Source of the DNA: Balneolaceae bacterium
GTDB lineage: Bacteria; Bacteroidota; Rhodothermia; Balneolales; Balneolaceae
Direction: 5' to 3'
DNA: 37,687 nt
Assembly (NCBI GenBank): GCA_033722635.1
Contig: JAWVYR010000001.1
Span: 1 to 37,687, forward strand
The notes beneath the pieces were generated by a model. That model did no database searches. It saw nothing but the letters and a program-made list of their open reading frames with translations, and had not been told where the DNA came from. Numbering within the stretch: position 1 is the first letter of the stretch; the number at the start of each line of letters is the position of its first letter. Both the position numbers and the translations under genes were made by a program. Shown piece by piece: positions 18,950-37,687 of the stretch.

Positions 18950-18993
18950 ACGTTTTTTGTTAAATACGCTGATATCCGTTTAGCTTTAGGAAT

Positions 18994-21137: not shown

Positions 21138-21168
21138 AAAAGGCAATCTAAGCTACCAACCTATTTAG

Positions 21169-22458
21169 ATGGATATGAATGTATTACTGCTGGGCAGTGG
21201 CGGGCGCGAGCATGCACTGGCCTGGAGCCTCAGCCGATCTAAACATCTCAGCAAGCTCTACATCGCACCCGGCAATCCGGGTACCGCCCAGGAGGGTACC
21301 AACGTGGATCTTTCCCCCTCCGATTTTGAGGCGGTGGTGAATTTCATCGAAGAGCATGATATCGGTTTGACTGTAGTGGGTCCCGAAAAGCCGCTGGTGG
21401 AAGGGATTGTCGACTTCCTGGATGACAAGGGCCACAAGGTGTTCGGACCATCCAAATCTGCAGCGAAGCTCGAGGGGAGCAAAAAATTTGCCAACGAGTT
21501 CATGAAAAAAAACCGGATTCCGACGGCCGACTTTGAGTCCTATACCCGGGACCGTTTTGATGAAGCGTTCGCACGGATAAAACAGGAAAATGAGTACCCG
21601 GTGGTACTGAAAGCCGACGGCCTGGCCGGTGGCAAGGGGGTTTTTGTGTGCGAAACGGAAGAGGATGTAAAGCACCGTTTTGAACAGCTGAAAGAGGGGA
21701 ATCGATTCGGTGGAGCGGCCGACACGGTGGTGGTTGAGGAGTTTCTGGAAGGGGAAGAGGCCTCGGTCTTCGTGATCTCCGATGGGGAGACTGCCAAGGT
21801 GTTGCACAACGCGCAGGACCATAAGCGAATCGGGGAAGGGGATACCGGATTGAATACAGGGGGAATGGGAGCCTACAGCCCCGCACCGATTATCAACCCG
21901 GAGATGCTGGCCCGGGTGGAGAAAGAGATCGTCCTGCCAACCATCACCGCCATGCAGCTGGATGGCAATCCCTACAAGGGAATCCTCTACTGCGGGTTGA
22001 TGATCACCGAGGAGGGTCCCAAAGTGGTAGAGTATAACTGCCGTTTCGGCGACCCGGAATGCCAGGCGATACTGCCATCGATCAAGAACGATATGCTGAA
22101 ACTGATGCTGGCCTCTTCCGAGGGGACACTGAACCAGCATATTGTTGAACTTGACGACCAGTACCGATGCTGCGTGGTGATCGCCTCTGAAGGTTACCCG
22201 AAAGAGTATGAGACCGGGAAAGAGATCTCCGGCATCGACCAGGTTTCATCCGACGCTTATGTATTTCACGCGGGTACCGCCCTGGCGGATGGCCGGCTGG
22301 TGACCGACGGCGGCCGGGTGCTCAATGTGGTGGATTCGGGGGATACCCTCCAGGATGCAATCCGGCATACCTACGAGGAGGTGAAAAAGATCTCCTTCGA
22401 GAACGCCTACTATCGCAGCGACATCGGGGTGAAGGGGCTGGCCCATCTGGAGGATTAG
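21169..22458 (+). CDS. purD: phosphoribosylamine--glycine ligase
   Basis: 429 aa with N-terminal NVLLLGSGGREHALAW, an ATP-grasp core, and FGDPE / GGRVL motifs. Confidence 0.95.
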   Translation: MDMNVLLLGSGGREHALAWSLSRSKHLSKLYIAPGNPGTAQEGTNVDLSPSDFEAVVNFIEEHDIGLTVVGPEKPLVEGIVDFLDDKGHKVFGPSKSAAKLEGSKKFANEFMKKNRIPTADFESYTRDRFDEAFARIKQENEYPVVLKADGLAGGKGVFVCETEEDVKHRFEQLKEGNRFGGAADTVVVEEFLEGEEASVFVISDGETAKVLHNAQDHKRIGEGDTGLNTGGMGAYSPAPIINPEMLARVEKEIVLPTITAMQLDGNPYKGILYCGLMITEEGPKVVEYNCRFGDPECQAILPSIKNDMLKLMLASSEGTLNQHIVELDDQYRCCVVIASEGYPKEYETGKEISGIDQVSSDAYVFHAGTALADGRLVTDGGRVLNVVDSGDTLQDAIRHTYEEVKKISFENAYYRSDIGVKGLAHLED

Positions 22459-22474
22459 AGCTTCCGCCGCTGTT

Positions 22475-23974
22475 TCAGGACCGCTTTAAAAACATTTTCA
22501 GCAGCTCTTCCCGGTTCAGTTTGCCGGTTTGGGTCTTTGGCAGGGAGTCGGCTTGCAGGATCTGCTTCGGCACCTTGTAAGCGGAGAGCCGTTCCTTCAG
22601 CTTTAGCTGCAGCTCTTCGGCCTCGATCGACTGTTCGGCTTTCACCGCCACCACCGCCACCACCTTCTGCCCCCATTCTTCATCGGGTATACCGAAAACC
22701 GCCGCTTCTGATACCGGTTCGATCTTTTCAAGCTCCGATTCAACCTCAAACGGCGATACATTCACTCCCCCGGTGACGATCATGTCTGATCTCCTGCTTT
22801 CGATAAACAGTTGATCGTGGGCATTCATATGTCCGTAATCACCGGTGTTGAACCATCCATCCTCATCAAAAGCCTGGCGGGTCATCTCACTATCGAGGTA
22901 TCCGTCGAATACCTGCGGTCCTTTCAACCAGATCGTTCCGGAATTGTTGGGTCCGAGTGGAGTGCCGTTCTCATCCCGGATTTGAATCTCATTGGGTGAA
23001 AAGATCTCGCCGACACTGTTCCGGGGGGCATAGGTGCCGCTCGGTTTCAACAGGGGATTGGCCGCGATCTGGGCACAGGTCTCGGTCATCCCGTAACTGG
23101 ATACCACCGGGATACCCCTGGATATCGCTTCCTGTATCAGGACGGAAGATACCGGCCCGCCCCCGAGAAGCAGGGCCAACAGATTTTTATGTACGGTAAA
23201 CGCCTTCTGCTCCATCAGCTTCTTCAGCATGGTGGGCACCAGCGATGCTACCTGTACGAGTGGGTTCTCCGATAAAAAGGTTGTAATCATCTCTTCATCA
23301 AAACTGCTCATACGATAGATGCCGGAACCGTACAGGAGTGAACGCAGTATCACCGCCACCCCCCCGATATGGTTCAGTGGGAGGCAGAGAAGCCAGAAAT
23401 GGTTTGTTAGGGGTCTGAAGTTATTGGCCGATGCTTCCGCGGCCAGTTCCATCTGCCGGCGTTTCAGGGGCACGATTTTGGGATCTCCCGTAGTGCCCGA
23501 AGTGAAGAAGTAGCCGAACACCTTCTCGGGCGTCACCACCGGGGTGAACTTTTGGGCTTTGGTACCCAACGTAAGATTCATCTCCAGCGCTTGATCCGGC
23601 TCCAGCAGATCGATCTCTATACAAAGCTCTTCAGGGATCGCTGAGCGGTGGTCCTCATCAGTGAAAATCACCGCGGGAGTAAATCCATCCAGTTGCCGGG
23701 CCAATTCATCCCGGGTGGCCTTGGGATTGAAGCAGACGAACCGCAGCCCCAGCAACCAGCACGATGCGATAGCCATTACCTGTTCGTCACGGGAGTTGCT
23801 GAGAAAACCGATCGGCCTGGATAGGTCGACCTCGTGGTCGATCAGCAGTTGCAGAAAGAATTCCTTGTACCGGTCCAGATCGGCATAGGTGCGCAACCCA
23901 TTCCTGGATGCCAGGAAAAGTCCGTTTTCATCCGGCGGATCGAAGTCCGGCATTTTTTGTGAAGATCTACCCAT
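22475..23974 (-). CDS. menE: 2-succinylbenzoate--CoA ligase (acyl-CoA synthetase family)
   Basis: 499 aa with adenylate-forming motifs FTSGTTGDPK, YGMTE, NTGDYG and PKTQTGKLNR. It is the last gene of the menA-menC-menE string. An alternative ATG lies at 23953. Confidence 0.8.
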   Translation of the reverse strand: MGRSSQKMPDFDPPDENGLFLASRNGLRTYADLDRYKEFFLQLLIDHEVDLSRPIGFLSNSRDEQVMAIASCWLLGLRFVCFNPKATRDELARQLDGFTPAVIFTDEDHRSAIPEELCIEIDLLEPDQALEMNLTLGTKAQKFTPVVTPEKVFGYFFTSGTTGDPKIVPLKRRQMELAAEASANNFRPLTNHFWLLCLPLNHIGGVAVILRSLLYGSGIYRMSSFDEEMITTFLSENPLVQVASLVPTMLKKLMEQKAFTVHKNLLALLLGGGPVSSVLIQEAISRGIPVVSSYGMTETCAQIAANPLLKPSGTYAPRNSVGEIFSPNEIQIRDENGTPLGPNNSGTIWLKGPQVFDGYLDSEMTRQAFDEDGWFNTGDYGHMNAHDQLFIESRRSDMIVTGGVNVSPFEVESELEKIEPVSEAAVFGIPDEEWGQKVVAVVAVKAEQSIEAEELQLKLKERLSAYKVPKQILQADSLPKTQTGKLNREELLKMFLKRS

Positions 23975-23980
23975 TGATAC

Positions 23981-25072
23981 CTATCGTTCAAGGACTTTCA
24001 GCTTCAGTTTTTCCGGGGAAAGTTCAAAAGTTCTGCCCAGTCCGGCACCCTCGGGCAGGTGAAAAAAACCGTTTTCAATATACGCATGATCACTCCAAAC
24101 GTCTATCTCCAGCAGGCTGCCGGTGTCAAGTCCATGCCCCTGATTCCCGGGACAAAGGCCGGCAGCCAGTGTTGCTGTCATCATTCGTCCGATTCCACTT
24201 TCCAGCGAGGTGGTGAAAACGGTCGTATAGTCATGAGTATCAGCCAGCCGTTTTGTTTCAATTATTTTCTGCAGATCTCCCAGTACCATCGGCTTGAAAA
24301 TCAACACCCCGGCAATATTCCTTTCCAGGAGATCGCCGGTCAAGGGAATATCACTCAGCGTTTCATCCAGGGCGATCGGAATCGGGCTATTTTGCACCAG
24401 TTTTTCAAGCACTTCCACCGAGGGATTACGGACCGGCTCCTCGCAGTATTCGATCGGATAGTCCGCTAAGATGGCCAGGTTTTTAACTGCCTCTTCCGCC
24501 GTCCAGGACCGGTTCGCATCCAGGCGAAAGTGGATATCGCTATGCAGGTTCGATGCCTGTTTGACAATATTCATTTCCCGGTCGAAATCTTTTCCCACTT
24601 TTATCTTTATGGTCTTAATTCCCCGATCAACCTGCCGGCGAATCGTTTCGAGTGTCTCCCTCTGGCTTCCCGCGGTGACCACCGAGTTGATCGGTATCTT
24701 GTTGCGGCAGCTGTCGAAGAGGTAGGGGCAGAGGGAGGTGCCGTTTTTTTTGGCCTGCAGATCATGATACAGGGTGTCAAGCGCAAACCGCACCGAGGGA
24801 GCGAGCTGATTCTGTTGCTTTAAGCGTTCCAGTTCTTCGTCACCCGGATCCGTCCGGAACAGCCCTTCCAGCCTATCCGCAATCTCCTTCAGCTGTTGCG
24901 ATACATCCTGCAGGGATTCCCCGGAAAATCCCGGCAGCGGCGCGGCCTCCCCGTATGCTTCCAGCGAATCTGTTTTCCAACGCAGGATAAATCCGTTGCG
25001 ATAGGTATAGGTTTGCCTGCCGGTCACAAAGGGCCGGGCTAGCGGAAATCGATATTGAAATATCTCCATCAT
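23981..25072 (-). CDS. menC: o-succinylbenzoate synthase (enolase superfamily)
   Basis: The ORF track start at 25114 is TTG and would overlap menA by 38 nt. The ATG at 25072 (MMEIFQYRF...) lies 4 nt after the menA stop. Enolase-superfamily motifs KIKVG, RLDANRSW, CEEP and ALDE. Flanked by menA and menE. Confidence 0.8.
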   Translation of the reverse strand: MMEIFQYRFPLARPFVTGRQTYTYRNGFILRWKTDSLEAYGEAAPLPGFSGESLQDVSQQLKEIADRLEGLFRTDPGDEELERLKQQNQLAPSVRFALDTLYHDLQAKKNGTSLCPYLFDSCRNKIPINSVVTAGSQRETLETIRRQVDRGIKTIKIKVGKDFDREMNIVKQASNLHSDIHFRLDANRSWTAEEAVKNLAILADYPIEYCEEPVRNPSVEVLEKLVQNSPIPIALDETLSDIPLTGDLLERNIAGVLIFKPMVLGDLQKIIETKRLADTHDYTTVFTTSLESGIGRMMTATLAAGLCPGNQGHGLDTGSLLEIDVWSDHAYIENGFFHLPEGAGLGRTFELSPEKLKLKVLER

Positions 25073-25076
25073 CCGG

Positions 25077-25964
25077 TCATCCGTAAAAAAGCCCCAGGCT
25101 GAACAACAATCCAAAGAGTACCATGAAAAAGGCGGTAAGTTTCAGGGTACGGTTGAGCTTGCTCTTTTCCTTTTCGGTCCAGATTACATAGACCAGGTAT
25201 CCGGCTACCGGTAAGGCGAACAGCGGCAGCAGTATGATCGGCCGGTAGGAGAGTTGAACGTAGAAATGCAGGGGAACGGCAAATGCCAGCACCATCATCA
25301 CCAGGTACTCCCAGCGCAATGCCTGCTCACCCAGTAGGACGCCCAGTGTATTCTTGCCGGCCGGCCGGTCCTGTTCGATATCCCGCAGATTGTTGACCAC
25401 CAGGATGTTGGTGGCCAGCGCGCCGATCGGTACGGAGGCCCAGAAAGAGGCGGCTGTCCACTCGAGGGTGTTGACGTAATAGGTACCCATGACGGCTACA
25501 ATCCCGAAAAAGATAAACACGAAGAGATCGCCCAGCCCGTTGTATCCGAGCGGGTAGGGCCCGCCGGTATAGAGAATCCCGAACAGCAGAGAGAGCAGAC
25601 CTATCAGCAGGATCACCCATCCGGCATGCCAGACCAGATACAACCCCAGTAAAAAAGCCAGACCCATGGTTAAAAAGGTGGCATTACGCATCTGAGCGGC
25701 ACTCAATTTGCCCGATGCGGTTGCACGTTCAAAACCGATGCGCTGCTCGTTGTCGGCTCCCTTGATGAAATCGAAATAGTCGTTTGCAAAGTTGGTACCG
25801 ATCTGAATGAGAAAGGCGCAAATCAGTGCCACGCTGCTCGCGACCGGATCGAATTGCTGGTTTTTCAGGGCCAGCGAGGCTCCGACCATGACCGGCGCAA
25901 AGGCTGCCGGCAGGGTTTGGGGACGGGCCGCTTTCACCCAGGTGATAAGTTTATCGGTATGCAA
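25077..25964 (-). CDS. menA: 1,4-dihydroxy-2-naphthoate polyprenyltransferase
   Basis: 295 aa with a TTG start, needed to include the conserved WVKAARPQTLPA. UbiA-family polytopic protein with the NDYFD motif and a second Asp-rich region (NNLRDIEQD). Confidence 0.88.
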   Translation of the reverse strand: MHTDKLITWVKAARPQTLPAAFAPVMVGASLALKNQQFDPVASSVALICAFLIQIGTNFANDYFDFIKGADNEQRIGFERATASGKLSAAQMRNATFLTMGLAFLLGLYLVWHAGWVILLIGLLSLLFGILYTGGPYPLGYNGLGDLFVFIFFGIVAVMGTYYVNTLEWTAASFWASVPIGALATNILVVNNLRDIEQDRPAGKNTLGVLLGEQALRWEYLVMMVLAFAVPLHFYVQLSYRPIILLPLFALPVAGYLVYVIWTEKEKSKLNRTLKLTAFFMVLFGLLFSLGLFYG

Positions 25965-26259
25965 CGATCAGGAGATTCATGAAATCGAATGTGGAAAAAT
26001 CGAGAGCATAAATTAGGGAAATTCTAAGCTGCTTAAAAAAACAAACTCAAAGGCTGTTTCGGTCAAAATAAATTAACTGATAGGCGGTATTTGTCGACTA
26101 ATGGCTTAGATATTAAAGTTGTAAAATAAATATGCCTATAATATTAAGATGTTAATAATTATTTGACTAATTTATTTGTGTTTATGATGCTCTTTACTAT
26201 ATATTTTACGCGTTGAAATTCATTGCAGACAAACGACTAACTAAATCCACACTATATCC

Positions 26260-28452
26260 ATGACTAAAGCATTCAGACGTTACGACACCCTTGCCGCTGC
26301 CCGAAACTGGACGCCGGCGACAAACGGCGACCGGAAAGTCGGTTCCATGAATATTACCGAAATATTCGGGGAAAATACCCTCCAACTGGATGATCTGAAG
26401 GAACGGCTTCCGAAGAACATTTGGGATGACCTGAAGAACACCATTTTTGAAGGCGAACAACTCAATCCTGATGTGGCCGATGCCGTGGCTGTAGCCATGC
26501 GTGACTGGGCCACGGAAAAAGGTGCCACCCATTTTACCCACTGGTTTCAGCCCCTGACCGGACTGACCGCCGAGAAGCACGACAGCTTCATCACCCCTAA
26601 CCAGGGCGGAGGAGCTATAGCGGAATTTTCCGGCAGCGATCTCATTCAGGGCGAGCCCGACGCCTCCAGCTTTCCCAGCGGTGGATTGAGGCAGACCTTT
26701 GAAGCTCGCGGGTATACCGCCTGGGATCCCACCTCGCCCGCTTTTATCATGGAGAATCAAAATGGATCCTATCTCTGCATTCCCACCGCTTTTGCTTCCT
26801 GGACCGGCGAGGCGCTGGATCACAAAACCCCATTGCTGCGCTCGGTGGAGGCGCTTGACAAGCAGGCCAAGCGCGCGCTGAAGCTGTTCAACACCCCGGC
26901 AAAACGGGTGACATCCACCGTCGGCTGCGAGCAGGAATATTTTCTGATCGACCAGGAGTTTTTCTATCGCCGGCCCGACCTGATGACCGCCGGCCGTACC
27001 CTGGTAGGGGCCAAACCGCCCAGGGGACAGGAGCTCGACGATCACTATTTCGGCACTATCCCCGAACGGATACTCTCCTTCATGCTGGATGCGGAAAAGG
27101 AGTTGTATAGACTGGGCATTCCGGTCAAAACCCGCCACAACGAGGTGGCTCCAAGCCAGTATGAGATCGCTCCGATTTTTGAAACCTGCAATGTAGCCGC
27201 TGACCACCAGCAGCTGATGATGATCACACTGAAGCGAGTCGCACGCAAGTATGGTTTGGAGTGCATGCTTCACGAGAAACCGTTCGACGGCGTGAACGGC
27301 AGCGGCAAGCACCTGAACTGGTCATTGAGCACCAGTGACGGCATGAACCTGCTGGATCCGGGTCACAATCCGCATGACAATATGCAGTTTCTCTTTTTCT
27401 TCGCTGCCGTATTAAAGGCAGTATATGATCATCAGGATCTGCTGCGCATCTCCATCGCGCACGCCGGGAACGACCATCGGCTGGGTGCCAACGAGGCGCC
27501 TCCGGCGATCATATCGGCCTATGTCGGCGAGCAACTCAAGGATATCGTGAATCAACTGCTCAGCGGCGGCATCAAGAAGGAGTCGAAAGACAGCGGATTG
27601 CTCGGGCTCGGTTCTCCTGTGCTGCCATCGCTGCCGAAGCATGCAGGCGACCGCAATCGTACCTCGCCTTTCGCCTTTACCGGCAACAAGTTTGAATTCC
27701 GGGCGGTGGGATCCAGCCAGTCGATCTCCTTTCCGATCGTTGTGCTCAACACCATCGTAGCCGAGGCACTGGATGAGCTTTGTACCGATATGGAAAAAGA
27801 GCTGGAGAAAAATGACTCGCTGGAAGATGCGCTGGCCGTGGTGCTCCACGATTCGCTGTCCGAAACCCATGACATCATCTTCAACGGCGACGGGTATTCG
27901 GAGGCGTGGAAAAAAGAGGCGGAGAAACGGGGATTACTCAACCTGAGGACCACCATGGATGCGCTTCCGCTTTTCTCCTCCGAGAAAAACATCGAGCTGT
28001 TCGAGAAGCATAAGGTGCTCAATGAGCGGGAGATCCATTCGCGCCTGGAGATCTGGGCCGAGCAGTATCTGACCACCATCAATATCGAGGCGGATACCAC
28101 CGAATCGATGGCAAAGACGATGATCTATCCGGCTGCTGTTCGCTACCTGAACGAGTTGGCGGAAAATGTCACCAAGATCGATGGGCTGGGCCTGGCCACT
28201 ACCGGGCCGTCGGCCATGCTCAACAAGATCAATGAAGGGCTGAACGACCTAAACAAGGCCCTGGAGGATCTGAGGGAAGCGGTGGTGAGCACTAGCAACG
28301 GCGAGGATGTGGTCGATAAAGCGACACTGGTGAAAGACCGTGTGATCCCGGCCATGAACGAGATACGGGATTCCGTTGATTACCTCGAGCGGCATGTAGC
28401 CGATGACTACTGGCCGCTGCCGATCTACCGCGAGATGCTCTTTATCAAATAA
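26260..28452 (+). CDS. glnN: glutamine synthetase, type III
   Basis: 730 aa. The length and motifs ([35 protein letters not shown], long C-terminal extension) match the Bacteroides/cyanobacterial GSIII class. Confidence 0.92.
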
Positions 28453-28467
28453 TCAAACCAACTCAAT

Positions 28468-28613
28468 CCACCCCGTCCGGCCACTAGTCCCCCTTTCGAA
28501 GGGGGTGCCCTGACAACAGTCAGGGCGGGGGATGTTACAGCGGCCGGGAGGGTATAAAAGTACAGAAAAACCTGTTAGGACCCGTTCAAGCGCAAATCCA
28601 GCGCCTGGACGGG
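28468..28613 (+). repeat. structured intergenic repeat, copy A (three hairpins)
   Basis: Hairpin 1 spans 28489-28505 (ccccctt-tcg-aaggggg). Hairpin 2 spans 28507-28526 (gccctgac-aaca-gtcagggc). Hairpin 3 spans 28581-28613 and has the loop aaatcca. The first 64 nt (28484-28547) differ from copy B at 3 positions. Confidence 0.8.
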
Positions 28614-28620
28614 TTTTTTT
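28581..28620 (+). terminator. rho-independent terminator candidate downstream of glnN (possibly bidirectional)
   Basis: 13-bp stem cccgttcaagcgc / gcgcctggacggg (one G-U, one mismatch) with a 7-nt loop, followed by T7 at 28614-28620. It lies between the convergent glnN and the 28640-29068 ORF. Confidence 0.6.
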
Positions 28621-28639
28621 ATTTATTGACCAACCGGCA

Positions 28640-29068
28640 TCAAAACCCGGTACCGCAGTTGCCTCCTCCCGAAAATCCGAAGGAGGATCCCCCGCTGTCG
28701 GTTTCCACAAAAGTGATTCCCGAATTCAACTGCTCAGCGTTTTCGGGATCCATTCCCGCCTCATCATCGAACTCGAGATCAAACAGGTAGACCTTCAGTT
28801 CATCGAGATTACCGGTCTGAATCTCAAGTCGGGTGAGGAATTGTGATTGGAATCGCTCCGAGGTCAGATGTGCAATCTGATTCATATTTGAGGCAGCCTC
28901 GGCATTCATATTCAGCTCGTTATTTTCTTCATATTCCGGCAGTTCGTGGTACGTCGGCACTTCTGCCACTTTGATTTCACCGGATTTCTTCTCGGCATCC
29001 TGGGCCAAAGCAGTGGAGGAGAACATGGCTAGGATTACCAGGGGAAGGAGCAGTTGGAGATATTTCAT
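28640..29068 (-). CDS. hypothetical secreted acidic protein with a Gly-rich C-terminal tail
   Basis: The ORF track start at 29122 is TTG. The ATG at 29068 gives MKYLQLLLPLVILAMFSSTALAQD (signal peptide). The mature part is very acidic and ends ...DSGGSSFGFSGGGNCGTGF. Bracketed by repeat copies A and B. No family recognised. Confidence 0.55.
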   Translation of the reverse strand: MKYLQLLLPLVILAMFSSTALAQDAEKKSGEIKVAEVPTYHELPEYEENNELNMNAEAASNMNQIAHLTSERFQSQFLTRLEIQTGNLDELKVYLFDLEFDDEAGMDPENAEQLNSGITFVETDSGGSSFGFSGGGNCGTGF

Positions 29069-29182
29069 GGCGGTGTCGGCTTGGTTAAAGATGGTTCTAC
29101 ACGAAAGATAGTTTAAGGTCAAAACAAATCTATCACATATTCATGTGATGAGATGGTTTATTCATTGCAATTCTTACTTTCT

Positions 29183-29320
29183 CCACCCGGGCGCTAGTCC
29201 CCCTTTTGAAGGGGGTGCCCTGACATCAGTCAGGGCGGGGGATGTTACAACGGCCGGCCGGGTAGAGACAAAGGCATCTACCTGTAACCGGGCCGACCGC
29301 AAATCCAGCGGGCGGACCGG
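29183..29320 (+). repeat. structured intergenic repeat, copy B (three hairpins)
   Basis: Hairpin 1 spans 29199-29215 and hairpin 2 spans 29217-29236. Hairpin 3 spans 29288-29320 with the same aaatcca loop but a different stem sequence (ccgggccgaccgc / gcgggcggaccgg). Same orientation as copy A. Confidence 0.8.
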
Positions 29321-29336
29321 ATTATAAGGAGAGAAA

Positions 29337-29588
29337 TTATGTGGAGATCCACGGAAACTTCTCCCAGTCCGGGTCCCGTTTTTCCAGGAAGGCGTCCCGC
29401 CCCTCCTCGGCCTCCTCGGTCATGTAGGCCAGCCGGGTCGCCTCGCCGGAGAAGATCTGCTGGCCCACCATCCCGTCGTCCACCAGGTTGAAGGCGTACT
29501 TGATCATCCGGATCGCCATCGGGCTTTTGCCCATGATCTCCCGGCCCCACCGGAAGGCGGTCTCCTCCAGTTCTTCAAGGGGAACCGA
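29337..29588 (-). pseudogene. menB: displaced 3' fragment of menB (last ~82 codons plus TAA stop)
   Basis: The translation ...EELEETAFRWGREIMGKSPMAIRMIKYAFNLVDDGMVGQQIFSGEATRLAYMTEEAEEGRDAFLEKRDPDWEKFPWIST matches the C-terminus of the full-length menB at 33102-33944 except for one residue (R for E). The upstream part of the 123-aa ORF (to the GTG at 29708) is unrelated to MenB. Confidence 0.85.
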
Positions 29589-30023
29589 GGTATTGCGGGA
29601 GAAGACGTGATTGGGTTCGGTGGATAGGTACGTCGACTTATTTGGTGATATTGAGCCGAACTCCCTGACTGTGTTGCCGGGCAATCTTTTAGCAAGATTG
29701 TGAGTCACTGGCTGGGCAGAAAAGAATTCGACGATCGATAATACAGCGGTAACGAGACTGTGCTGTTCAGAGTGAAAAAGTTTTTCCCGATTGGTGTAAC
29801 GACCAAAAATTATTCAAATATTTTAGGCATCTGTTATTTCTTGGCGGTTAATAGCTTACATATTATGAAGATTTATCAAGCTATCCCGAACAATGAATTA
29901 AACTTGCATGTAGTGTTTTTTTTTTTCAACTATGACATAGGAGAATAAGTATAAAAGATTTCAGCAGCAGGAGTTTGGTGAGATTTACGAGAGCGTCAAA
30001 AAAAATGACAATCAGGAAAGAAA

Positions 30024-30986
30024 ATGAGAACTGCAACGATACTGCTGCTGTTGACCGTTACCGCCTGCGAATTGCTGGGCGGAGCCGACGAGGGTCCGCC
30101 TCGTACCATTATATATTCGGCTCAAATTGAAGATGGCACCTTCCAGATCTTTTCGATGCGCGAGGACGGCTCGGGCGTCCGTCAGCTAACCGACGAGGAG
30201 TTCGGATCGACCGAGCCGGCCTGGAGCCCTGATGGGGCCCGCATCGCCTACGCCCGTGGGACCGGCAGCACCGCAGGAAAGGCCCTGTGGGTGATGGATG
30301 CCGACGGGGGCAACAAGCAGCCGCTGGTACTCAACCCCCAAACCGGTAATCCGCAGATGGGCAACCAGCCGGCCTGGAGCCCGGACGGCATGAAGCTGGC
30401 CTTCGACCGATGCCTGAACTGTGAGCTGGGAGGAAAGAATTATGAGGTTTTCGTGGCTGATCTACAAACCGGAACCATTGACACCTTAACCAATCATCCG
30501 GTGGAGGACAGCCACCCCACCTGGAGCCCTGATGGGCAACAGATCGCTTTCACCTCCAACCGTGATTACTTCGATGCGGATACTATGCATTTTAGAGAAG
30601 AAATTTATACAGTGAGCTCCGACGGTACAAAGCTTCAAAGACTCACTGATGCAGGGATTTCCAGAGACCCTATTTGGAATCCAAAAGGGAATACCATTGG
30701 ATTTGGGTCCAACGTTGGCTCATCATTGGGACTATTTCAGGTGGAAGTACAATCTGAGGAAATTTTTGAAATTAAGGTGGATTTTCCTGAGAGATTTCTG
30801 CTGGTACCTATGGCTTGGTCATCAGATGGTCAAAATTTATTGATAATTGCAAGAGATCAATCTACTCCAGAAGATTTTTCTATGTACATAGTTGATACAG
30901 AAAATGGCCAATCAGAATTAATTCCCTTAGAACCGAAATTGATTATAGGCGCCGACTGGTTTACAGATTTTGATAACCAAAATTAA
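30024..30986 (+). CDS. TolB-like (PD40/WD40-like) beta-propeller lipoprotein
   Basis: 320 aa with lipobox LTVTAC. PD40 repeat signatures PAWSPDGARIAY, PAWSPDGMKLAF and PTWSPDGQQIAF, then degenerate PIWNPKGNTIGF and MAWSSDGQNLLI. Confidence 0.75.
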   Translation: MRTATILLLLTVTACELLGGADEGPPRTIIYSAQIEDGTFQIFSMREDGSGVRQLTDEEFGSTEPAWSPDGARIAYARGTGSTAGKALWVMDADGGNKQPLVLNPQTGNPQMGNQPAWSPDGMKLAFDRCLNCELGGKNYEVFVADLQTGTIDTLTNHPVEDSHPTWSPDGQQIAFTSNRDYFDADTMHFREEIYTVSSDGTKLQRLTDAGISRDPIWNPKGNTIGFGSNVGSSLGLFQVEVQSEEIFEIKVDFPERFLLVPMAWSSDGQNLLIIARDQSTPEDFSMYIVDTENGQSELIPLEPKLIIGADWFTDFDNQN

Positions 30987-31180
30987 CAGGAAATAATGAT
31001 AAACGAATATGCTTTCTCATAAAGCATAACTCAAAACCATTAATAAAAGCCCCCGCGGTCGCTCCGCACTTTGCTAAAAGAACAACGGAAGCATTCCTGC
31101 AGGGGCCTGGTGTGTATATGCTCCCGGGTTCGGGAGCATACCGCACCTCCAATATAATCAAATTAGTTGGAGGTTTCATT

Positions 31181-33082
31181 ATGAAACGATTCATTTCACT
31201 ATTTACCCTGCTACTGCTCACCTTAGCAGCCTGCGATTCTCCGGTGAGCCAATTGGGCAGTGACAACAAGACTTCGATTGACAACCCTGAATCCCGGCAT
31301 TCCTATCATTCCTCGTCCGCTCCGGATGACTCTATGCGCCAGGCGCTCTGGCAACAGTTCAAAATCCGGTACGGCCCGGAATGGAGAATCACCTGGGGCG
31401 ACAAGACCGGAACGCCGCGAACGGTGTTTTCCGGAACGACCCAACCTGTTAAGGGCGATCCCGAACAGGCTGCCCGGGAGTTTCTGGCGCAAAACCAATC
31501 TCTGTTTGGTATGCGTAAGGATTTGGCCGATCTGAATCTGATCGAAGTCGATCTTTCTCCCCGTGGTAACCGGCATGTACGCTTTCAGCAGACCTATAAA
31601 GGTACTCCCATATATGATGCTACTTACCAGGTACATATCCGCCCCGATGGACGCATCGATATGGCTAATGGTCACTATTACCCCAACATTGAAGTGTCAA
31701 CCGATCCTTCGGTATCGGCTGCTTCTGCTATACGAACGGTGGAGGCCGACCTGGGGGCTCAGACAATCCTGAAGGAAATTCCTGTAACCGAGCTGATGAT
31801 CTTCCGGAATCCCAAAACAGATGCGTTTGCACTGACCTGGCGGGTTGTGATTGCTGAAAAGGGACTTCATTGGCAGTATTTCATCGACGCTGCCAATGGG
31901 CAGGTCTTGGAAAAGCTGGAAATGTCCACCTCCATTACGGGCGACGGCGATATTATCCAGGAAACCTCCTGCACGACTCCGAACCCGGTAAACAGAGATC
32001 TATTCCGGTTGTTTGGTAATGGATATCTGGAAGGAACTTATGCCAACGTGCATAATGAAGAAACCAGCCGGGCTTTTTCTCAGAATAACAGCTTTCAGTA
32101 TGCTGTGGACAATACTCACTTTGAGGAGGTGAATGTCTATTATCATATCGATACATACCGCCATAACTATTTGGATAACATCGGCTTAGCGGGTGAAAAA
32201 ATCGGCAGCGATCTGGATCTGGAGGCGTTTGTGCATGATCCGATTTATGATGCTAGTTATATTTTTAGCCAGGAAGCTGTTCGCTTCGGTGATCCGCCTG
32301 ATTTTGCCCTTCAGGATGAGGTGATCTATCATGAGTTTGTCCATGCTGCCGCGGATGCAGTAAACGGTAATCACCGCATCGATCCCTGGGATGATGAAGA
32401 AGGAGCGATCGGCGAAGGTACCGCCGATTATTTCCCCGGCTCATTTACAGGCGATGCCCAGATAGGGATTTGTGTGTTGTTCAATCCCCGGGATATGGAA
32501 AATCCTGATATTGCAACCTACGAAGATTATCTGAATAATTTACCTGTAGGTGAACATGAAGGCGGCGAATTCTTTTCAGCCATTTTGTGGGATCTGCGCA
32601 ATTCGGGAGAAATATCATCCCACGACGCCGATGTTATCATCTTTGAGGCGATCCCCCGGTTGTCCGGAGCTCCAGACTTCATCGAATACCGCGATGCCAT
32701 GATGGCGGTAGATTCTGATATCAATTCTGGAATATTTAATGACCTGATTCAAAACACCTTTGCCGATTGGGGCGTTGGAGAACATGTGGTTTATGAAGTC
32801 ACTATCACGGGACCGGGTTCTGTTAACAATGGGGAAAGTGGTACCTGGTATGCGAATTCAGATAATGGTGTTTCTCCATATTCCTATGTATGGTATACCC
32901 GTTCCAGTTCAATGGATCCCTGGACACAGGTAGGTACCGGTTCTTCGTATTCCCAGGCTGTATTAAGTGATTTCGAGTTGAAACTCGAGGGTACAGATGG
33001 AAATAGCGATACGGCCACTGATCTACACTATGTGACAAAGCTGTGTGATCCATGCGACTGGACTTGCCCGTGTTCAAATTAA
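31181..33082 (+). CDS. thermolysin-clan (M4/M36-like) zinc metallopeptidase lipoprotein with propeptide-like N-terminus
   Basis: The ORF track start at 31112 is GTG. The ATG at 31181 is preceded by ggagg and gives MKRFISLFTLLLLTLAAC (lipobox). It has HEFVHA (HExxH) and a downstream Glu ligand context GAIGEGTADYF. It also has GEHEGGEFFSAILWDL, FTP/PepSY-like segments (AAREFLAQNQSLFGM; SAASAIRTVEADLG), a C-terminal PKD-like beta domain and the tail CDPCDWTCPCSN. Confidence 0.75.
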   Translation: MKRFISLFTLLLLTLAACDSPVSQLGSDNKTSIDNPESRHSYHSSSAPDDSMRQALWQQFKIRYGPEWRITWGDKTGTPRTVFSGTTQPVKGDPEQAAREFLAQNQSLFGMRKDLADLNLIEVDLSPRGNRHVRFQQTYKGTPIYDATYQVHIRPDGRIDMANGHYYPNIEVSTDPSVSAASAIRTVEADLGAQTILKEIPVTELMIFRNPKTDAFALTWRVVIAEKGLHWQYFIDAANGQVLEKLEMSTSITGDGDIIQETSCTTPNPVNRDLFRLFGNGYLEGTYANVHNEETSRAFSQNNSFQYAVDNTHFEEVNVYYHIDTYRHNYLDNIGLAGEKIGSDLDLEAFVHDPIYDASYIFSQEAVRFGDPPDFALQDEVIYHEFVHAAADAVNGNHRIDPWDDEEGAIGEGTADYFPGSFTGDAQIGICVLFNPRDMENPDIATYEDYLNNLPVGEHEGGEFFSAILWDLRNSGEISSHDADVIIFEAIPRLSGAPDFIEYRDAMMAVDSDINSGIFNDLIQNTFADWGVGEHVVYEVTITGPGSVNNGESGTWYANSDNGVSPYSYVWYTRSSSMDPWTQVGTGSSYSQAVLSDFELKLEGTDGNSDTATDLHYVTKLCDPCDWTCPCSN

Positions 33083-33101
33083 TTTAATTACAACTGACGG
33101 G

Positions 33102-33353
33102 TCAGGTGGAGATCCAGGGAAACTTCTCCCAGTCCGGGTCCCGTTTTTCCAGGAAGGCGTCCCGCCCCTCCTCGGCCTCCTCGGTCATGTAGGCCAGCCG
33201 GGTCGCTTCGCCCGAGAAGATCTGCTGGCCCACCATCCCGTCGTCCACCAGGTTGAAGGCGTACTTGATCATCCGGATCGCCATCGGGCTCTTGCCCATG
33301 ATCTCCCGGCCCCATTCAAATGCGGTCTCCTCCAGCTCCTCGTGGGGCACCAC
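33102..33353 (-). repeat. direct repeat: 3' end of the intact menB, partner of 29337-29588
   Basis: In a hand alignment at a fixed offset of 3765 nt, I counted 7 mismatches in the first 213 nt. There are perfect runs of 89 nt (29353-29441) and 77 nt (29449-29525). Identity decays over the next ~40 nt. Confidence 0.85.
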
Positions 33354-33944
33354 CGCGTTCACCATCCCCATCTCATAGGCTTCCTGCGCGGAGTAGTTGC
33401 GGCCGAGAAAGAAGATCTCCCGGGCTCGTTTCTGGCCTACCTGGCGGGCCAGCAGGGCGGATCCGTACCCGCCGTCGAAGCTGGCCACATCGGCGTCGGT
33501 CTGCTTGAAGATGGCGTGCTCTTTGCTGGCCAGGGTCAGGTCGCACACCACATGCAGGCTGTGACCCCCGCCTACCGCCCAGCCCGGCACCACGGCGATC
33601 ACCACCTTGGGCATAAAACGGATTAGCCGCTGCAGCTCCAGCACATTCAGCCGGGCGGTTCCCCGGTCATCCTTGTACCCCGACTTATCGCGCACATTCT
33701 GATCGCCCCCCGAGCAGAAAGCGTATTTTCCATCTTTGGGGGAGGGGCCCTCGCCGCTCAGCAGTATGACGCCGATCTCCTGATCCTCCCGGGCGTTCAA
33801 AAAGGCCTCGTACATCTCGAAGAGGGTTTTCGGGCGGAAGGCGTTTCGGATCTTCGGGCGATTAAACGCGATTCGGGCGATACCGTCCGCTTTTTTATAG
33901 GTGATATCCTCGTATTCTTTTACGGTGGTCCAATGGATGCTCAT
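33102..33944 (-). CDS. menB: 1,4-dihydroxy-2-naphthoyl-CoA synthase
   Basis: 280 aa. Crotonase fold with MenB-typical segments FCSGGDQ, VVPGWAVGGGHSLHVVCDLT and DGGYGSALLARQVG. ATGA start/stop overlap with menH. Confidence 0.95.
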   Translation of the reverse strand: MSIHWTTVKEYEDITYKKADGIARIAFNRPKIRNAFRPKTLFEMYEAFLNAREDQEIGVILLSGEGPSPKDGKYAFCSGGDQNVRDKSGYKDDRGTARLNVLELQRLIRFMPKVVIAVVPGWAVGGGHSLHVVCDLTLASKEHAIFKQTDADVASFDGGYGSALLARQVGQKRAREIFFLGRNYSAQEAYEMGMVNAVVPHEELEETAFEWGREIMGKSPMAIRMIKYAFNLVDDGMVGQQIFSGEATRLAYMTEEAEEGRDAFLEKRDPDWEKFPWIST

Positions 33945-34765
33945 ATCGACTGATTGTTTGTTAAAAATGAACGTATGGTGGAAACAAATTCTTCCGGCCT
34001 TTCAATATGCACGCGGTGACCGGTTTTATCCAAAATATTTAATGAACTTTCAGGAATCAGGCGGTGCATCTCTGAAAGGATTGCCCGATATTTCTTATCC
34101 TCCGCACCGCCGATCAGCAGCACCGGAATGGGCAGCGAAGATAGATGACCCTTTACGCCCGGCATGGAGCCGGTGCCGAATCCTCGCAGGCTGGCAGCCA
34201 TATATGTCGGATCTTGATCACGCTGTATCCGGGAATAGGTTTGCAGCAATTCTTCAGCCACGGGAGCCGTGGAGTCAAACAGGGACAGCTCACCCCAACG
34301 ATCCAGGAATACCCCAAAGTTCTTTTCGATCTCTGTCGCCCGCTTCTCATCTGCAGCCATTCGCTGTTCAGCTTCAGCCTGATCCTCGAAGCCCGGGTTG
34401 GCACTTTCCAAAATCAAACCGTCCAGGTAACCGGGATAAGCAACGGCAAATTGAAGGGCCAGCCGCCCACCCATGCTGTACCCGTGGAGAAACAATGCAT
34501 CCGCATCCAGAAAGTGAATGATCTGCCGCAGATCACCGGCCTGCATCGGTGTTCGGTAGCGGTCGGGATCTCGGCTGCCCCCGGTACGGCCGTGACCCAG
34601 CAGGTCGACGGTAACAGGATTGCAAAATTCGGTCAGCTCCTCAATAAGATGGGAAAAAGCATTGGAACTGCCCATAAAACCGTGCAGCAATAACAGGAAT
34701 GGCAGGCCCTCCTGTTGATGGATGGTCAGATGATAGTCGATGCCGTTGCTGGTGAGCTGCATCAT
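33941..34765 (-). CDS. menH: 2-succinyl-6-hydroxy-2,4-cyclohexadiene-1-carboxylate synthase (alpha/beta hydrolase)
   Basis: The maximal ORF reaches the ATG at 34825 but would overlap menD by 64 nt. The ATG at 34765 forms an ATGA overlap with the menD stop. Oxyanion HGFMGS, nucleophile elbow HGYSMGG. Located between menD and menB. Confidence 0.8.
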   Translation of the reverse strand: MMQLTSNGIDYHLTIHQQEGLPFLLLLHGFMGSSNAFSHLIEELTEFCNPVTVDLLGHGRTGGSRDPDRYRTPMQAGDLRQIIHFLDADALFLHGYSMGGRLALQFAVAYPGYLDGLILESANPGFEDQAEAEQRMAADEKRATEIEKNFGVFLDRWGELSLFDSTAPVAEELLQTYSRIQRDQDPTYMAASLRGFGTGSMPGVKGHLSSLPIPVLLIGGAEDKKYRAILSEMHRLIPESSLNILDKTGHRVHIERPEEFVSTIRSFLTNNQSI

Positions 34766-36474
34766 CTGCTCCATTTCCAACAAGCCCGGCGCAGCTCCAT
34801 CGAGGCGTCCGGGTCGGTCCGGCATTCGATGATATGGATGCCCGGTACCTTCCTGAAGGAATCGAGGTTGATATCTCCGAGCTGGGGCTTGCGCTCTATC
34901 CGGTGGTACTGCAGCCCGTGAGCCTCAGACAGTTTTTTGATATCGGCATTTTGCGGCGTCTCAAAATATTTCCGGAAGTAGGCCTGGTGTTCAGCGATGG
35001 GAAGCATCCTGAATATGGTACCGCCCCGGTTGTTCAATATCACCACGACCAGCGGGGCTTTCAGTTTATCGTGATTCAGCAGGGCGTTGGCATCATGGAG
35101 AAATGCCAGGTCCCCGATAAAGAGCAGTCCGGGCTGCCCGGAGTCGATCGTTGCTCCAATCGCCATGGAGGTGATCCCGTCGATGCCGCTGGCTCCACGG
35201 TTCACGTAAACCGGCTGGCCCCCGGGGGATCCGAAAAGGGGATAATCCCTGACGGGAAAAGAGTTGGACAGAAACAGGTTCCAGTGGCCGGGCACCTGCG
35301 TGCTGATTGTATGGAAAACATGGCCGTCCGTGAGCTTATCGGTATCCGCCAGCATTTTTTCCCTGGCGTTAACAAAAGAATCGGATCGTTCAGCCCAGAT
35401 CTTAAGCCATTCGGTATTGTTTGCTCGGGGGATGGTGTCCAGATCGATCGGGCGGTTGTTCCATTCGACCCGGATATCAGTAGAGAAGGTATAATCCTGC
35501 CATTCATCCAGCGAGGAGAAATGTATCTGAACAGCGTCCGAGTTTTCCAGGAGATGGTTCACGATCTTGCTGACCGGTTGCCGGCCGAATCGAAGGATCA
35601 GGTCGGGGGGGTTATCTTTGATGAACGACTTGTCCTGAAGCAGGTTGTCATATCCCGCAATACGGTTTTCCGACAGCGCTGCGATACCGGGATCGGCGAG
35701 CAGCGGGGCACCGATATGCTCCGCCAATTGCAGGGGAGCCTGTTCGTTTTCAAAGGGGTTCAACGGCCCCGCTATAACCAATGCTCTGTCCGACTTCTCC
35801 AGTCGTTCATGTACACTTGGAAAAAGCTTCATCGGCGACCGGTCCCGGTATAATTCAGTATGCTGAATCTGCTCATTATCGAGCGAGAGGTCGATATCGT
35901 TTTTGATCGTTTCTACAAAATGGGGGTCCGGTTCCAGCGGCTTGCGAAAGGGGAAATTGAGATGTACCGGCCCGTTGCGGGCGATCGAGACGGTGAAGGC
36001 CTGGTCTGCAAGCAGTCCCAGCCGTCTAAAATCAGCGGAGTCGGCTACCGGTTCCCCCACCTCATGGAACAGCACCGGATAATCGCCATAGAGTTTTAAC
36101 TGGTCGATCGACTGGGACGTCCCGATTTCCCTGTGCATCGGAGGCCGGTCGGCGGTAGCTACGATCATCGCTACACCCGACTTACGGGCCTCGATCACCG
36201 CCGGGTGGTAGTTAGCGGCAGCGGTGCCCGAGGTACAGATAAGCAGAGCGGGCTTCCCGGAGCTCTTTCCGATTCCCAGGGCGGTGAATGCAGCCGACCG
36301 CTCATCCAGGGTCACATGATCGTGCATTCCCTTGTGAACCGCAGAGGCAAGGGTCAGGGGGCTAGAGCGGGACCCCGGGGAGAGGATCACATGCCGAAGG
36401 CCGCACCGGTGTAGTTCGCGTATAAAAATGCTGGACCAGTAAAACGCGAGATTGTTGGGTGAGATCTCATCCAT
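34762..36474 (-). CDS. menD: 2-succinyl-5-enolpyruvyl-6-hydroxy-3-cyclohexene-1-carboxylate synthase
   Basis: 570 aa. ThDP enzyme with N-terminal SPGSRSSPL and a ThDP-binding motif GDLAFLHD...NNRGGTIF. Overlaps the menF stop by 8 nt. Confidence 0.93.
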   Translation of the reverse strand: MDEISPNNLAFYWSSIFIRELHRCGLRHVILSPGSRSSPLTLASAVHKGMHDHVTLDERSAAFTALGIGKSSGKPALLICTSGTAAANYHPAVIEARKSGVAMIVATADRPPMHREIGTSQSIDQLKLYGDYPVLFHEVGEPVADSADFRRLGLLADQAFTVSIARNGPVHLNFPFRKPLEPDPHFVETIKNDIDLSLDNEQIQHTELYRDRSPMKLFPSVHERLEKSDRALVIAGPLNPFENEQAPLQLAEHIGAPLLADPGIAALSENRIAGYDNLLQDKSFIKDNPPDLILRFGRQPVSKIVNHLLENSDAVQIHFSSLDEWQDYTFSTDIRVEWNNRPIDLDTIPRANNTEWLKIWAERSDSFVNAREKMLADTDKLTDGHVFHTISTQVPGHWNLFLSNSFPVRDYPLFGSPGGQPVYVNRGASGIDGITSMAIGATIDSGQPGLLFIGDLAFLHDANALLNHDKLKAPLVVVILNNRGGTIFRMLPIAEHQAYFRKYFETPQNADIKKLSEAHGLQYHRIERKPQLGDINLDSFRKVPGIHIIECRTDPDASMELRRACWKWSR

Positions 36475-37687
36475 GGCCGTTCATGGCCGAAACCATCGGC
36501 ATAAATTTCAGTTGGCTCTCCTTCCATTCTGTTACGGGATCGGAATCGGACAGGATACCGCATCCCGCATAAAAATGGGCCGTGTCATCCTTGATAATAC
36601 CGCTTCGGATCGCCACGGAAAACTCCCCGCAGCGGTTTAGATTGAGCCAGCCGACCGGCCCGGCATACCAGCCGCGGTCGAACTCTTCGAACCTGCGGAT
36701 ATAATCCAGTGCCTGCTTACGGGGATATCCGCCGACCGCCGGAGTGGGATGCAGGCTACTGATGATATCCAGGTACGCACTTTCTTCTTTCAGGTAAGCG
36801 GTGATCGGAGTGAACAGGTGCTGTACATTCCTGAGTTTTTTGACACCCGGGCGATCGGGATAATCCACATTCTTGGAAAAGGGTTGAAGATTGCGGGCGA
36901 TCGACCGGACCACATAGCGGTGTTCTCTCAGATTTTTGGGGCTGTTCAACAGCTGTTTTTCCATCAGGGCATCTTCGGTAGCTGATTCTCCCCGCGATAT
37001 GCTTCCCGCCAGTCCGTCCGTCAGAAGCAGACGGTTGTTGAGATAAGCCAGCCGTTCCGGCGTGGAGCCGATGAAAGTGCCAGAATTCTTCTGGTGGATC
37101 AGGAAGGAGTAGCAGTTATGATATTGGTTGCGAAGCCGGTTGAGCATCAGGGTGGGGGATATCGGTTGTTTTGATCGGGCGGTAAACCGTCGTGCAAGCA
37201 CGATCTTTTCGAATGATGCCTGCCGGATCTCCTGTTTGACCTCATCAACCATTTTCATCCACCGGTTCTCGATCTCCTCCCCGTCAGGATCGAGGATCCA
37301 TCCGTTTTCCATCGACCGCTCCAGCACCTCGTCCCGGTCCATGTTCAGGGCCGGTAGCAGCTGTTCATGCATCTTTAGAAAGTGTCTTTTGAGCTGTTCC
37401 GTGGATAATCCGCGGTCCTTCCTGGCGGTGAGCGTCAGCAGTCCCAGTTTTCCATCCCTGATAAAGAGCCATTCGGGAACCGTCAGCGAAAAGGCTCCAA
37501 ATCCCTTCCAGATCGGTTCCTCAATCTGATCGAAAAAGGAACCGCCGCCCAGAAAATGGATTCCGCCGTAGCGGTGTTGGATAGGAGAGAAATGATGGGT
37601 ACGCTTTTGCACCTCTTCGATCTGTTCCTTTAGTTCTAAAATTCGGTTGTCTCCCCCTGATCTCAGACGGATCACCTCTCCGCCGGC
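36467..37687 (-). CDS. menF: isochorismate synthase (N-terminus may lie outside the window)
   Basis: Chorismate-binding motifs SLHPTPAVGGYP, GWYAGPVGW and AGCGI. The ORF track start at 37675 is GTG and the frame stays open to the window edge, so the true start is undetermined. Confidence 0.88.
   Translation of the reverse strand, partial: AGGEVIRLRSGGDNRILELKEQIEEVQKRTHHFSPIQHRYGGIHFLGGGSFFDQIEEPIWKGFGAFSLTVPEWLFIRDGKLGLLTLTARKDRGLSTEQLKRHFLKMHEQLLPALNMDRDEVLERSMENGWILDPDGEEIENRWMKMVDEVKQEIRQASFEKIVLARRFTARSKQPISPTLMLNRLRNQYHNCYSFLIHQKNSGTFIGSTPERLAYLNNRLLLTDGLAGSISRGESATEDALMEKQLLNSPKNLREHRYVVRSIARNLQPFSKNVDYPDRPGVKKLRNVQHLFTPITAYLKEESAYLDIISSLHPTPAVGGYPRKQALDYIRRFEEFDRGWYAGPVGWLNLNRCGEFSVAIRSGIIKDDTAHFYAGCGILSDSDPVTEWKESQLKFMPMVSAMNGHG

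Follow-up and report, generated by a model that had tools for sequence, protein, structure and literature searches.

Why does the end of a single housekeeping gene occur twice, less than 4 kb apart, in a genome of the family Balneolaceae? The stretch analysed here, hereafter the window, comprises 37,687 nucleotides (nt) of a Balneolaceae bacterium (GenBank assembly GCA_033722635.1, contig JAWVYR010000001.1, positions 1 to 37,687). In it the 3' end of menB, the gene for 1,4-dihydroxy-2-naphthoyl-CoA synthase, is present as two direct copies that enclose an operon of two lipoprotein genes, one encoding a PD40 beta-propeller protein and the other an FTP/M36-like metallopeptidase (Table 1). Copy B completes the intact menB, and copy A lies on the far side of the operon, next to a spacer element (R') and the gene for type III glutamine synthetase (GSIII). 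The original prediction, made from the sequence alone, read this arrangement as the attachment-site signature of a genomic island without a recombinase, in which menB ends from two functional lineages had been juxtaposed. We favour another answer, to which we give a probability of roughly 55%: the operon is an old insertion that duplicated the end of menB, and the core of the repeat has been homogenised by gene conversion.

A repeat search and an ungapped, in-register identity profile were run on the whole window, and both repeat copies lie on the minus strand. The longest repeat in the window is direct, 246 nt long (29341-29586 and 33106-33351), 94% identical and spaced 3765 nt from start to start, as had been predicted for the last ~250 nt of menB. 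Identity per 30 nt is 93-100% over 29340-29549, falls to 70% at 29550-29579 and to 37-40% at 29580-29639, and is at background beyond; past the stop codon it drops at once to 17-27%. The predicted inward fading of the homology and its end at the stop codon are thus both borne out by the profile. Positions 29337-29549 hold six mismatches (29338, 29340, 29352, 29442, 29448 and 29526), not the seven counted by hand in the first 213 nt, since the seventh is the next one, at 29550; the accompanying claim that each is synonymous or in the stop codon (TAA versus TGA) stands. As described, uninterrupted identity extends for 89 nt (29353-29441) and for 77 nt (29449-29525), and comparison of the peptides from EELEE to WIST again gave an R/E change as the sole difference between the copies.

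The mismatches are unevenly spread over the repeat. The core (29353-29549) carries 3 in 197 positions (98.5% identical), compared with 3 in 16 at the stop-side edge (29337-29352; 81% identity, Fisher P=0.006 versus the core) and 15 in 45 at the inner edge (29550-29594; 67% identity, Fisher P=7e-10 versus the core). Because conversion tracts must fall within the homology, the edges would be the parts least converted. All five coding differences in the core are synonymous, an outcome with P ~5e-4 if the changes were neutral.

The gene itself is the last of a menF-menD-menH-menB cluster on the minus strand, and its product is 82-88% identical to other Balneolaceae MenB. Both copies encode the motifs SPMAIR, EIMGK and WIST, which occur in none of 120 homologues, and the copies are 98% identical to each other compared with 72-83% to any relative. 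Against copy B the inner edge of copy A scores 67% identity, and against all other menB 56-71%; it combines non-conservative changes (H to L and V to S) at invariant MenB residues with retained ancestral-like codons (AAT, GTT and GCC). Since this edge is equally far from copy B and from other menB and has conserved residues altered, the duplicate appears to be old and its edge to have long evolved alone. A MenB hidden Markov model (HMM) aligns to copy A over positions 182-277 only and finds nothing significant upstream of ~29595.

Two further ideas about copy A were set aside. Residual MenB homology upstream of 29595 was considered, as a BLASTP alignment reached residue 140 and 36% nucleotide identity was obtained with an in-frame offset; the HMM run on the upstream part alone returned nothing, and the similarity is not significant. 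A foreign origin of the edge was rejected as well, the closest menB among 86 loci being only 71% identical. Copy A falls within a mechanically called open reading frame (ORF) of 123 amino acids (aa; 29337-29708, minus strand), with an equivalent at 14262-14609 in the second assembly described below. Gene callers report the fragment as a 115-123-aa 'ECH_1' protein or enoyl-CoA hydratase; the call is most likely false, the fragment being a pseudogene remnant.

A second assembly of the same species (ENA ERZ28654005) matches the window over 29283-37687 at 99.77% identity (scaffold_1253, here L001) and over 18640-29291 at 99.75% (L146). L001 differs from the window by 18 single-nucleotide polymorphisms (SNPs) and holds copy A, copy B and the operon between them in unchanged order on one scaffold. 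As L001 is a different consensus, the two-copy arrangement is not an assembly artefact, and the mis-assembly of the duplication that the original prediction had allowed for can be discarded. Copy A of L001 agrees with copy B at 29442 as well as at 29448, and the two copies of L001 have a 100% identical core. The serine codon concerned is TCC in the outgroups, which is the state of copy A in the window, and TCG in copy B; with TCC in the outgroups, TCG arose in copy B and was then transferred to copy A of L001. Strain SNPs in the 518 nt of repeats number 5, where 1.2 would be expected (P=0.008). Positions 29449-33290 (3.84 kb) show no SNP between the window and L001, the longest such gap in the 19 kb compared; the block measures about one repeat period and ends in both repeats at complementary offsets.

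Two other features of this comparison were observed. Twelve SNPs between the window and L001 are clustered in 0.8 kb at 33291-34104 (menB-menH), and there are other clusters, for example at 19605-19713; these look like imports by homologous recombination within the species. Two ENA scaffolds (25.9 kb and 49.8 kb) stop inside R', at 29283 and 29291, with a 9-nt overlap; a drop in coverage, a structural polymorphism or splitting of scaffolds may account for this. Because they end there, the linkage of copy A to GSIII rests on the window assembly, on the colinearity of R' and R (the related element next to GSIII) and on synteny in relatives.

Relatives were compared at the genus or family level, the nearest MenB outside the species among 5.8 billion proteins being 88% identical. 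The empty sites that had been predicted are present among them: menFDHB is directly convergent with GSIII-menA at loci L002 (84-nt spacer), L141 (469 nt) and L038 (369 nt), menB is likewise followed by GSIII at L011, and the spacers across these four loci range from 84 to 1707 nt. No operon and no extra piece of menB was found in these spacers. An empty site within the species was also sought, and the sole conspecific sequence is the second assembly, with the same arrangement. Because copy A still adjoins the R'/GSIII flank and relatives have menB convergent with GSIII, this flank is ancestral and copy A is the displaced native end of menB. The position of copy A thus supports the predicted architecture, in which DNA was inserted after menB, ahead of its native flank, and the 3' end was duplicated.

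Other relatives carry the operon beside menB. The PD40-peptidase pair is convergent with menB at L144 (where menB is cut by the contig end), at L088, L089 and L090, and at L084, and it lies elsewhere at L139, L082, L085 and many others. Additional menB pieces were sought with an HMM built from 120 MenB homologues against six-frame translations, and they were found only at operon-bearing loci, with none at the 80 other menB loci. L088, L089 and L090, which come from three samples, have, ahead of PD40 and in the predicted orientation, a 66-nt remnant of the menB C-terminus (HMM E=1.6e-6). The L088 remnant is ~82% identical to the menB of its own lineage, with which it has a derived 'EY' in common, and it has no core motif in common with the window repeat beyond the menB coding sequence. 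At L087 the peptidase is followed immediately by a ~100-nt menB stub, and the next 10 kb contain no menB. That the operon goes together with duplicated or truncated ends of menB is thus a real and recurrent association.

The enclosed DNA itself has little of the character of island cargo. The segment has 47.5% GC compared with 52.9% in the window and 61% in menB, and GC at third codon positions (GC3) is 49-53% in the enclosed genes versus 58-73% in neighbouring core genes; the lower GC that had been noted therefore holds, and the hand counts of 30-48% apply to sub-regions only. An AT-rich leader precedes the operon and on its left meets the menB fragment at the inner junction. Both enclosed proteins are lipoproteins, as had been proposed, with lipobox signal peptides seen by inspection (..LTVTAC.. 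in the PD40 protein and ..LTLAAC.. in the peptidase, for which the mechanical ORF start is 31112). The PD40 protein is 78% identical to its L087 homologue; the peptidase belongs to a family of 41 proteins, the closest of which, at L144, is 76% identical. The pair is conserved in the same order across ~50 metagenome loci, in many contexts and mostly without flanking repeats. Within the PD40 gene GC3 falls sharply, from ~50-73% in the first 600 nt to 18-49% thereafter. This low-GC 3' third is present in all homologues (including those at L087, L088, L082, L138 and L139), in lineages of differing genomic GC; being family-wide, it is no sign of recent import, and the idea that the fall marks a recombination breakpoint was rejected as it recurs in every homologue.

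Searches for mobility genes were negative, in agreement with the original prediction. A Pfam scan of the two genes, of 10 alternative-frame ORFs of the segment and of all large ORFs of the window found no integrase, excisionase, transposase or IntI, and the segment and window contain no tRNA or tmRNA gene and no terminal inverted repeat. The locus also lacks the marks of a transposon, insertion sequence or integron cassette, with no relevant inverted repeats and a duplication of ~260 nt in place of one of 2-15 nt. Searches of IMG/VR viral contigs with menB and the peptidase gave no relative, and plasmids gave only distant Bacillus M4 peptidases. Carriage by phage or plasmid was rejected on these grounds, the one 'phage' match (MT835589.1), in which menB is full-length, being a bacterial men locus of high GC. 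This record (L145, positions 19839-30594), deposited as 'UNVERIFIED Bacteriophage sp.', holds a full high-GC men locus with menA, menE, menB, menC and menD, and is probably not a phage sequence. Judged on its gene content and its distribution, which spans many contexts and adjoins menB at L144, L088 and L084, with a stub only at L087, the enclosed DNA is a conserved chromosomal operon of the family, and we reject its reading as foreign island cargo.

We suggest that the PD40-lipoprotein/FTP-M36 peptidase operon long ago entered between menB and its native flank (spacer R and GSIII-menA-menC-menE), in an event that would have duplicated the last ~260 nt of menB. Copy B would complete the working gene, and copy A, non-functional, would have been decaying since. 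The central ~200 nt of the copies may exchange by RecA-type gene conversion between direct repeats 3.8 kb apart, keeping the core 98.5-100% identical. The working copy, under purifying selection, would repeatedly overwrite the fragment, which would explain why the surviving core differences are synonymous, and no site-specific recombinase would be active at the locus now. We infer that gene conversion, and not recent arrival, accounts for the identity of the core. The locus shows what is expected of concerted evolution: an identity peak in the middle of the homology, lineage-specific substitutions common to both copies, and paralogue states at linked sites (a single event, seen in consensus sequences only). 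The motifs SPMAIR and WIST in both copies, the mismatches clustered at the edges, the decayed inner edge and the paralogue states of L001 all speak against the earlier proposal that two functional lineages were juxtaposed.

Several points weigh against this explanation. The conversion is read from two consensus sequences and one two-site event, and two point mutations in copy A of the window would leave the same pattern. The SNP-free block is suggestive, fitting a recently shared circular unit too, and could be chance. The synonymous-only coding differences, by themselves, also fit two functional alleles. The phylogenies of the FTP peptidase and the men genes are incongruent, which suggests more than one acquisition at the menB site: the men-gene tree places empty L002 with occupied L084 at 100% bootstrap and adds occupied L088 at 98%, with the window pairing weakly (58%) with empty L141, and L084 and L088 have peptidases of only 48% identity, placed in different subclades. 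To account for this pattern, the operon must either have been lost repeatedly, by deletions that the repeats would make precise, or have been gained or replaced more than once at one position. The spacer between the peptidase stop codon and copy B is 19 nt in the window, so that copy B lies flush against the inserted operon, versus 170-208 nt at L144, L088 and L084; the right junction of the window may therefore postdate the adjacency seen in relatives.

Table 1. Features of the menB locus and its flanks in the window.
Feature	Position	Strand	Evidence
Intact menB, 1,4-dihydroxy-2-naphthoyl-CoA synthase, 280 aa	33102-33944	-	Pfam ECH_1 1.6e-62
Copy B, working menB 3' end	33102-33360	-	Repeat search, identity profile
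FTP-propeptide/M36-like Zn-metallopeptidase lipoprotein, 633 aa, HEFVH motif	31181-33082	+	Pfam FTP 1.8e-12, weak Peptidase_M36 match
PD40/TolB-like beta-propeller lipoprotein, 320 aa, first of pair	30024-30986	+	Pfam PD40 2.1e-21
AT-rich (38.9% GC) non-coding operon leader	29596-30023	.	No Pfam match, no MenB homology
Copy A, displaced native menB 3' end, pseudogene fragment	29337-29595	-	Repeat search, MenB HMM
R', copy of structured ~140-nt spacer element, directly downstream of copy A stop codon	29187-29323	.	Repeat search
orf160, ORFan secreted protein, 142 aa	28640-29068	-	No Pfam match
R, structured spacer element, GSIII terminator hairpin then T-run	28477-28616	.	
Type III glutamine synthetase (GSIII), ancestral convergent neighbour of menB	26260-28452	+	Pfam, synteny
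menA	25077-25964	-	Pfam, L146 gene table
menC	23981-25114	-	Pfam, L146 gene table
menE	22475-23974	-	Pfam, L146 gene table

The flank beyond copy A has a repeat of its own. R and R' form a ~140-nt direct repeat whose first 78 nt are 91% identical; in the 3' hairpin the loop AAATCCA is kept and the stem changes are compensatory, and both elements are strongly structured (z = -5.5 to -6.7). Neither matched Rfam at the gathering threshold or at E<0.1, and the R element was not found in the menB-GSIII spacers of relatives. R and R' may be a duplicated bidirectional terminator or a novel RNA or repeat element. The orf160 gene lies exactly between R and R', and its product matched nothing but itself in a search of 5.8 billion proteins; this unit resembles a second insert at the locus, again with direct repeats on either side.

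Some other operon-bearing contigs also carry repeats or additional genes. At L113, a distant metagenome contig, a ~90-nt direct repeat starting CATAACAAGCGC (4530-4615 and 7995-8080) flanks the PD40-peptidase pair and is faintly attC-like. L138, which carries two PD40 genes and the peptidase, has a 26-nt direct repeat (2-27 and 4779-4804; 88% identity) at the contig ends, which suggests that the contig is bounded by repeated sequence. On L082 (NCBI metagenome-assembled genome contig CAYPZI010000032.1), a second PD40 gene directly follows the peptidase and is itself followed by a small T5orf172/MUG113 (GIY-YIG-like) ORF at 4731-4973. Direct repeats around the operon were rejected as a general signature, since the repeat at L097 is a type IX secretion system (T9SS) C-terminal domain common to two proteins.

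How the operon first arrived is a separate matter from how the repeat core is maintained. The topology of the insertion would be given equally by a circle carrying a menB end (single crossover), by an ends-in linear fragment, by one-sided capture, or by an integrase element with a surrogate 3' end. We infer that the original insertion went through menB homology, by Campbell-type (ends-in) or homology-facilitated illegitimate recombination, and not through an integrase that was later lost. Compared with homology-facilitated illegitimate recombination, the topology of the locus matches (an anchor, a non-homologous junction and an orphan 3' end); the junction has decayed, leaving any microhomology unreadable, and no donor was found. 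Of the three origins that the original prediction had listed, a decayed islet and homology-driven capture are possible, and current mobilisation in trans is without support. As the original prediction stated, recombination within the core of the repeats would remove the segment and restore menB, with the MenB protein unchanged.

The rival explanation that survives best, though we consider it unlikely, is that the operon and a menB 3' end form a unit that needs no recombinase, looping out through the repeats and re-entering related genomes by a RecA-dependent single crossover (Campbell or ends-in), so that the present repeats would record a recent conspecific re-integration. Such a unit would account for the menB stubs in three lineages, for occupied and empty sister loci and for the incongruence between peptidase and men genes, with R-orf160-R' as a second product of the same process. 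The operon adjoins menB in several lineages that are non-monophyletic for the peptidase, and empty L002 is sister to occupied L084, but the patchy distribution could equally be due to repeat-mediated losses and rearrangements. At L087 the operon has only the menB stub, and the remnant at L088 has a different outer neighbour (FtsX), so that the insertion there may be independent. It counts against such a unit that the closest peptidase relatives, at L139 and L082, do not adjoin menB. The conspecific SNP-free block of about one repeat period, ending within the repeats, would fit a unit of this kind. However, a simple Campbell event predicts uniform divergence and not a 98-100% core with edges of 67% and 81%, the decayed inner edge marks a fragment far older than the strain split, and neither a circular form nor a polymorphic empty site was seen. 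If true, this explanation would describe a homology-targeted route for moving operons between related genomes.

Somewhat less probable again is a decayed integrase islet, in which a tyrosine-recombinase element with a surrogate menB 3' end would have entered menB and later lost all but two cargo genes, leaving the repeats as old attL and attR. Such elements are classically recognised by direct repeats of a gene 3' end and a displaced native end (e14, icd/icdC; PMC13626634), relatives have empty sites, and GC and GC3 of the segment lie somewhat below those of core genes. Against this, neither the segment nor the 37.7-kb window contains a gene for an integrase, an excisionase or any other mobile-element function, and no recombinase lies beside the operon at L084, L085, L087 or L088. 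The supposed cargo is a conserved chromosomal operon of ~50 loci, mostly without flanking repeats, and the IMG/VR and plasmid comparisons gave, respectively, no relative of menB or the peptidase and only distant M4 peptidases.

We regard as improbable a one-sided homologous capture, in which peptidase-menB DNA of a relative would have been anchored in menB and its other end joined illegitimately within the recipient menB, orphaning the last 260 nt. The GSIII-menB and peptidase-menB arrangements both exist in the family and the window combines them, menB is the most conserved gene here (82-93% aa identity versus 42-66% for its neighbours) and hence a good anchor, and orphan 3' ends at Rhs and type VI secretion system (T6SS) loci have been explained by this model as well, as a proposal (PMC5361080). 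However, capture predicts a sharp inner junction and uniform divergence, which are absent here unless conversion came later; there is no identifiable donor, the closest peptidase being 76% identical, and the same architecture at L088 would need a second such rare event. An assembly artefact or strain chimera, with copies from different strains joined by the assembler, is barely credible despite the metagenome source and the two ENA scaffolds that end inside R', since both copies and the operon lie on one scaffold of the independent L001 consensus, a repeat chimera would yield one hybrid copy and not two 3.8 kb apart with a non-homologous inner junction, and an analogous remnant occurs at L088, L089 and L090 in three samples.

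The explanation that we prefer, an old insertion whose repeat core is homogenised by conversion, has consequences beyond this locus. The end of a conserved housekeeping gene may receive extra genes with no dedicated recombinase in sight, and a 260-nt pseudogene fragment may persist long through gene conversion. Where a fragment is maintained by conversion, synonymous-only divergence between repeats is unusable as evidence for two functional lineages. Repeat-flanked segments without an integrase can also mislead island predictors and gene callers.

Known systems offer partial parallels to the menB locus. The e14 element and phage 21 insert at icd in Escherichia coli beside a second icd 3' end, leaving the other copy as the icdC pseudogene fragment (PMC13626634). 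The differences between icd and icdC are largely synonymous, and recombination between them removes the insert and gives a functional chimeric gene (PMC13626634; Hill et al. 1989 cited there). The menB locus resembles e14/icd in that menB is kept intact and a second 3' end lies as a C-terminal fragment on the far side of the insert, and the empty sites of relatives, at the genus or family level, fit the same type. Unlike the menB insert, e14 is a 15-kb prophage that encodes an integrase and an excisionase and is excised on SOS induction; the menB insert is 3.5 kb, has only the lipoprotein/peptidase operon and no recombinase, and its repeats show a conversion-type identity profile in place of uniform, sharp-ended att homology.

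Orphan 3' ends at Rhs, contact-dependent inhibition (CDI) and T6SS effector loci have been proposed to arise from homology-facilitated illegitimate recombination (PMC5361080). As at menB, a conserved region serves as the anchor, DNA is added after it and the old 3' end is pushed downstream as an orphan, with no dedicated recombinase (PMC5361080). The ends at those loci, however, are different toxin tips with immunity genes under diversifying selection, whereas at menB both ends encode the same peptide of a housekeeping enzyme, to which the inserted genes have no relation. In Campbell-type integration, known mainly from suicide vectors and amplifiable units, the insert is flanked by direct repeats, with one complete gene and one truncated copy, and the event is reversible. 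The menB locus is like such an insertion-duplication in topology, but no circular intermediate, replicon or transfer function is evident, and its uneven repeat divergence needs later conversion. In bacterial concerted evolution, for example of tufA/tufB or of silent copies of the pilE/pilS type, the middles of the repeats are near-identical and the borders of the homology diverge. The menB copies behave like tufA/tufB-type repeats in that paralogue states move between the copies in different strains; unlike tufA/tufB and pilE/pilS, one of the menB partners is a 260-nt non-functional fragment, neither a full gene nor a dedicated silent cassette, and the exchange has no apparent function. The closest architectural counterpart is e14 or phage 21 at icd, and the closest mechanistic counterparts are displacement at Rhs and T6SS loci and Campbell insertion-duplication. 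The menB feature is a variant of these known phenomena, a teaching case rather than a new system or a fresh genomic island.

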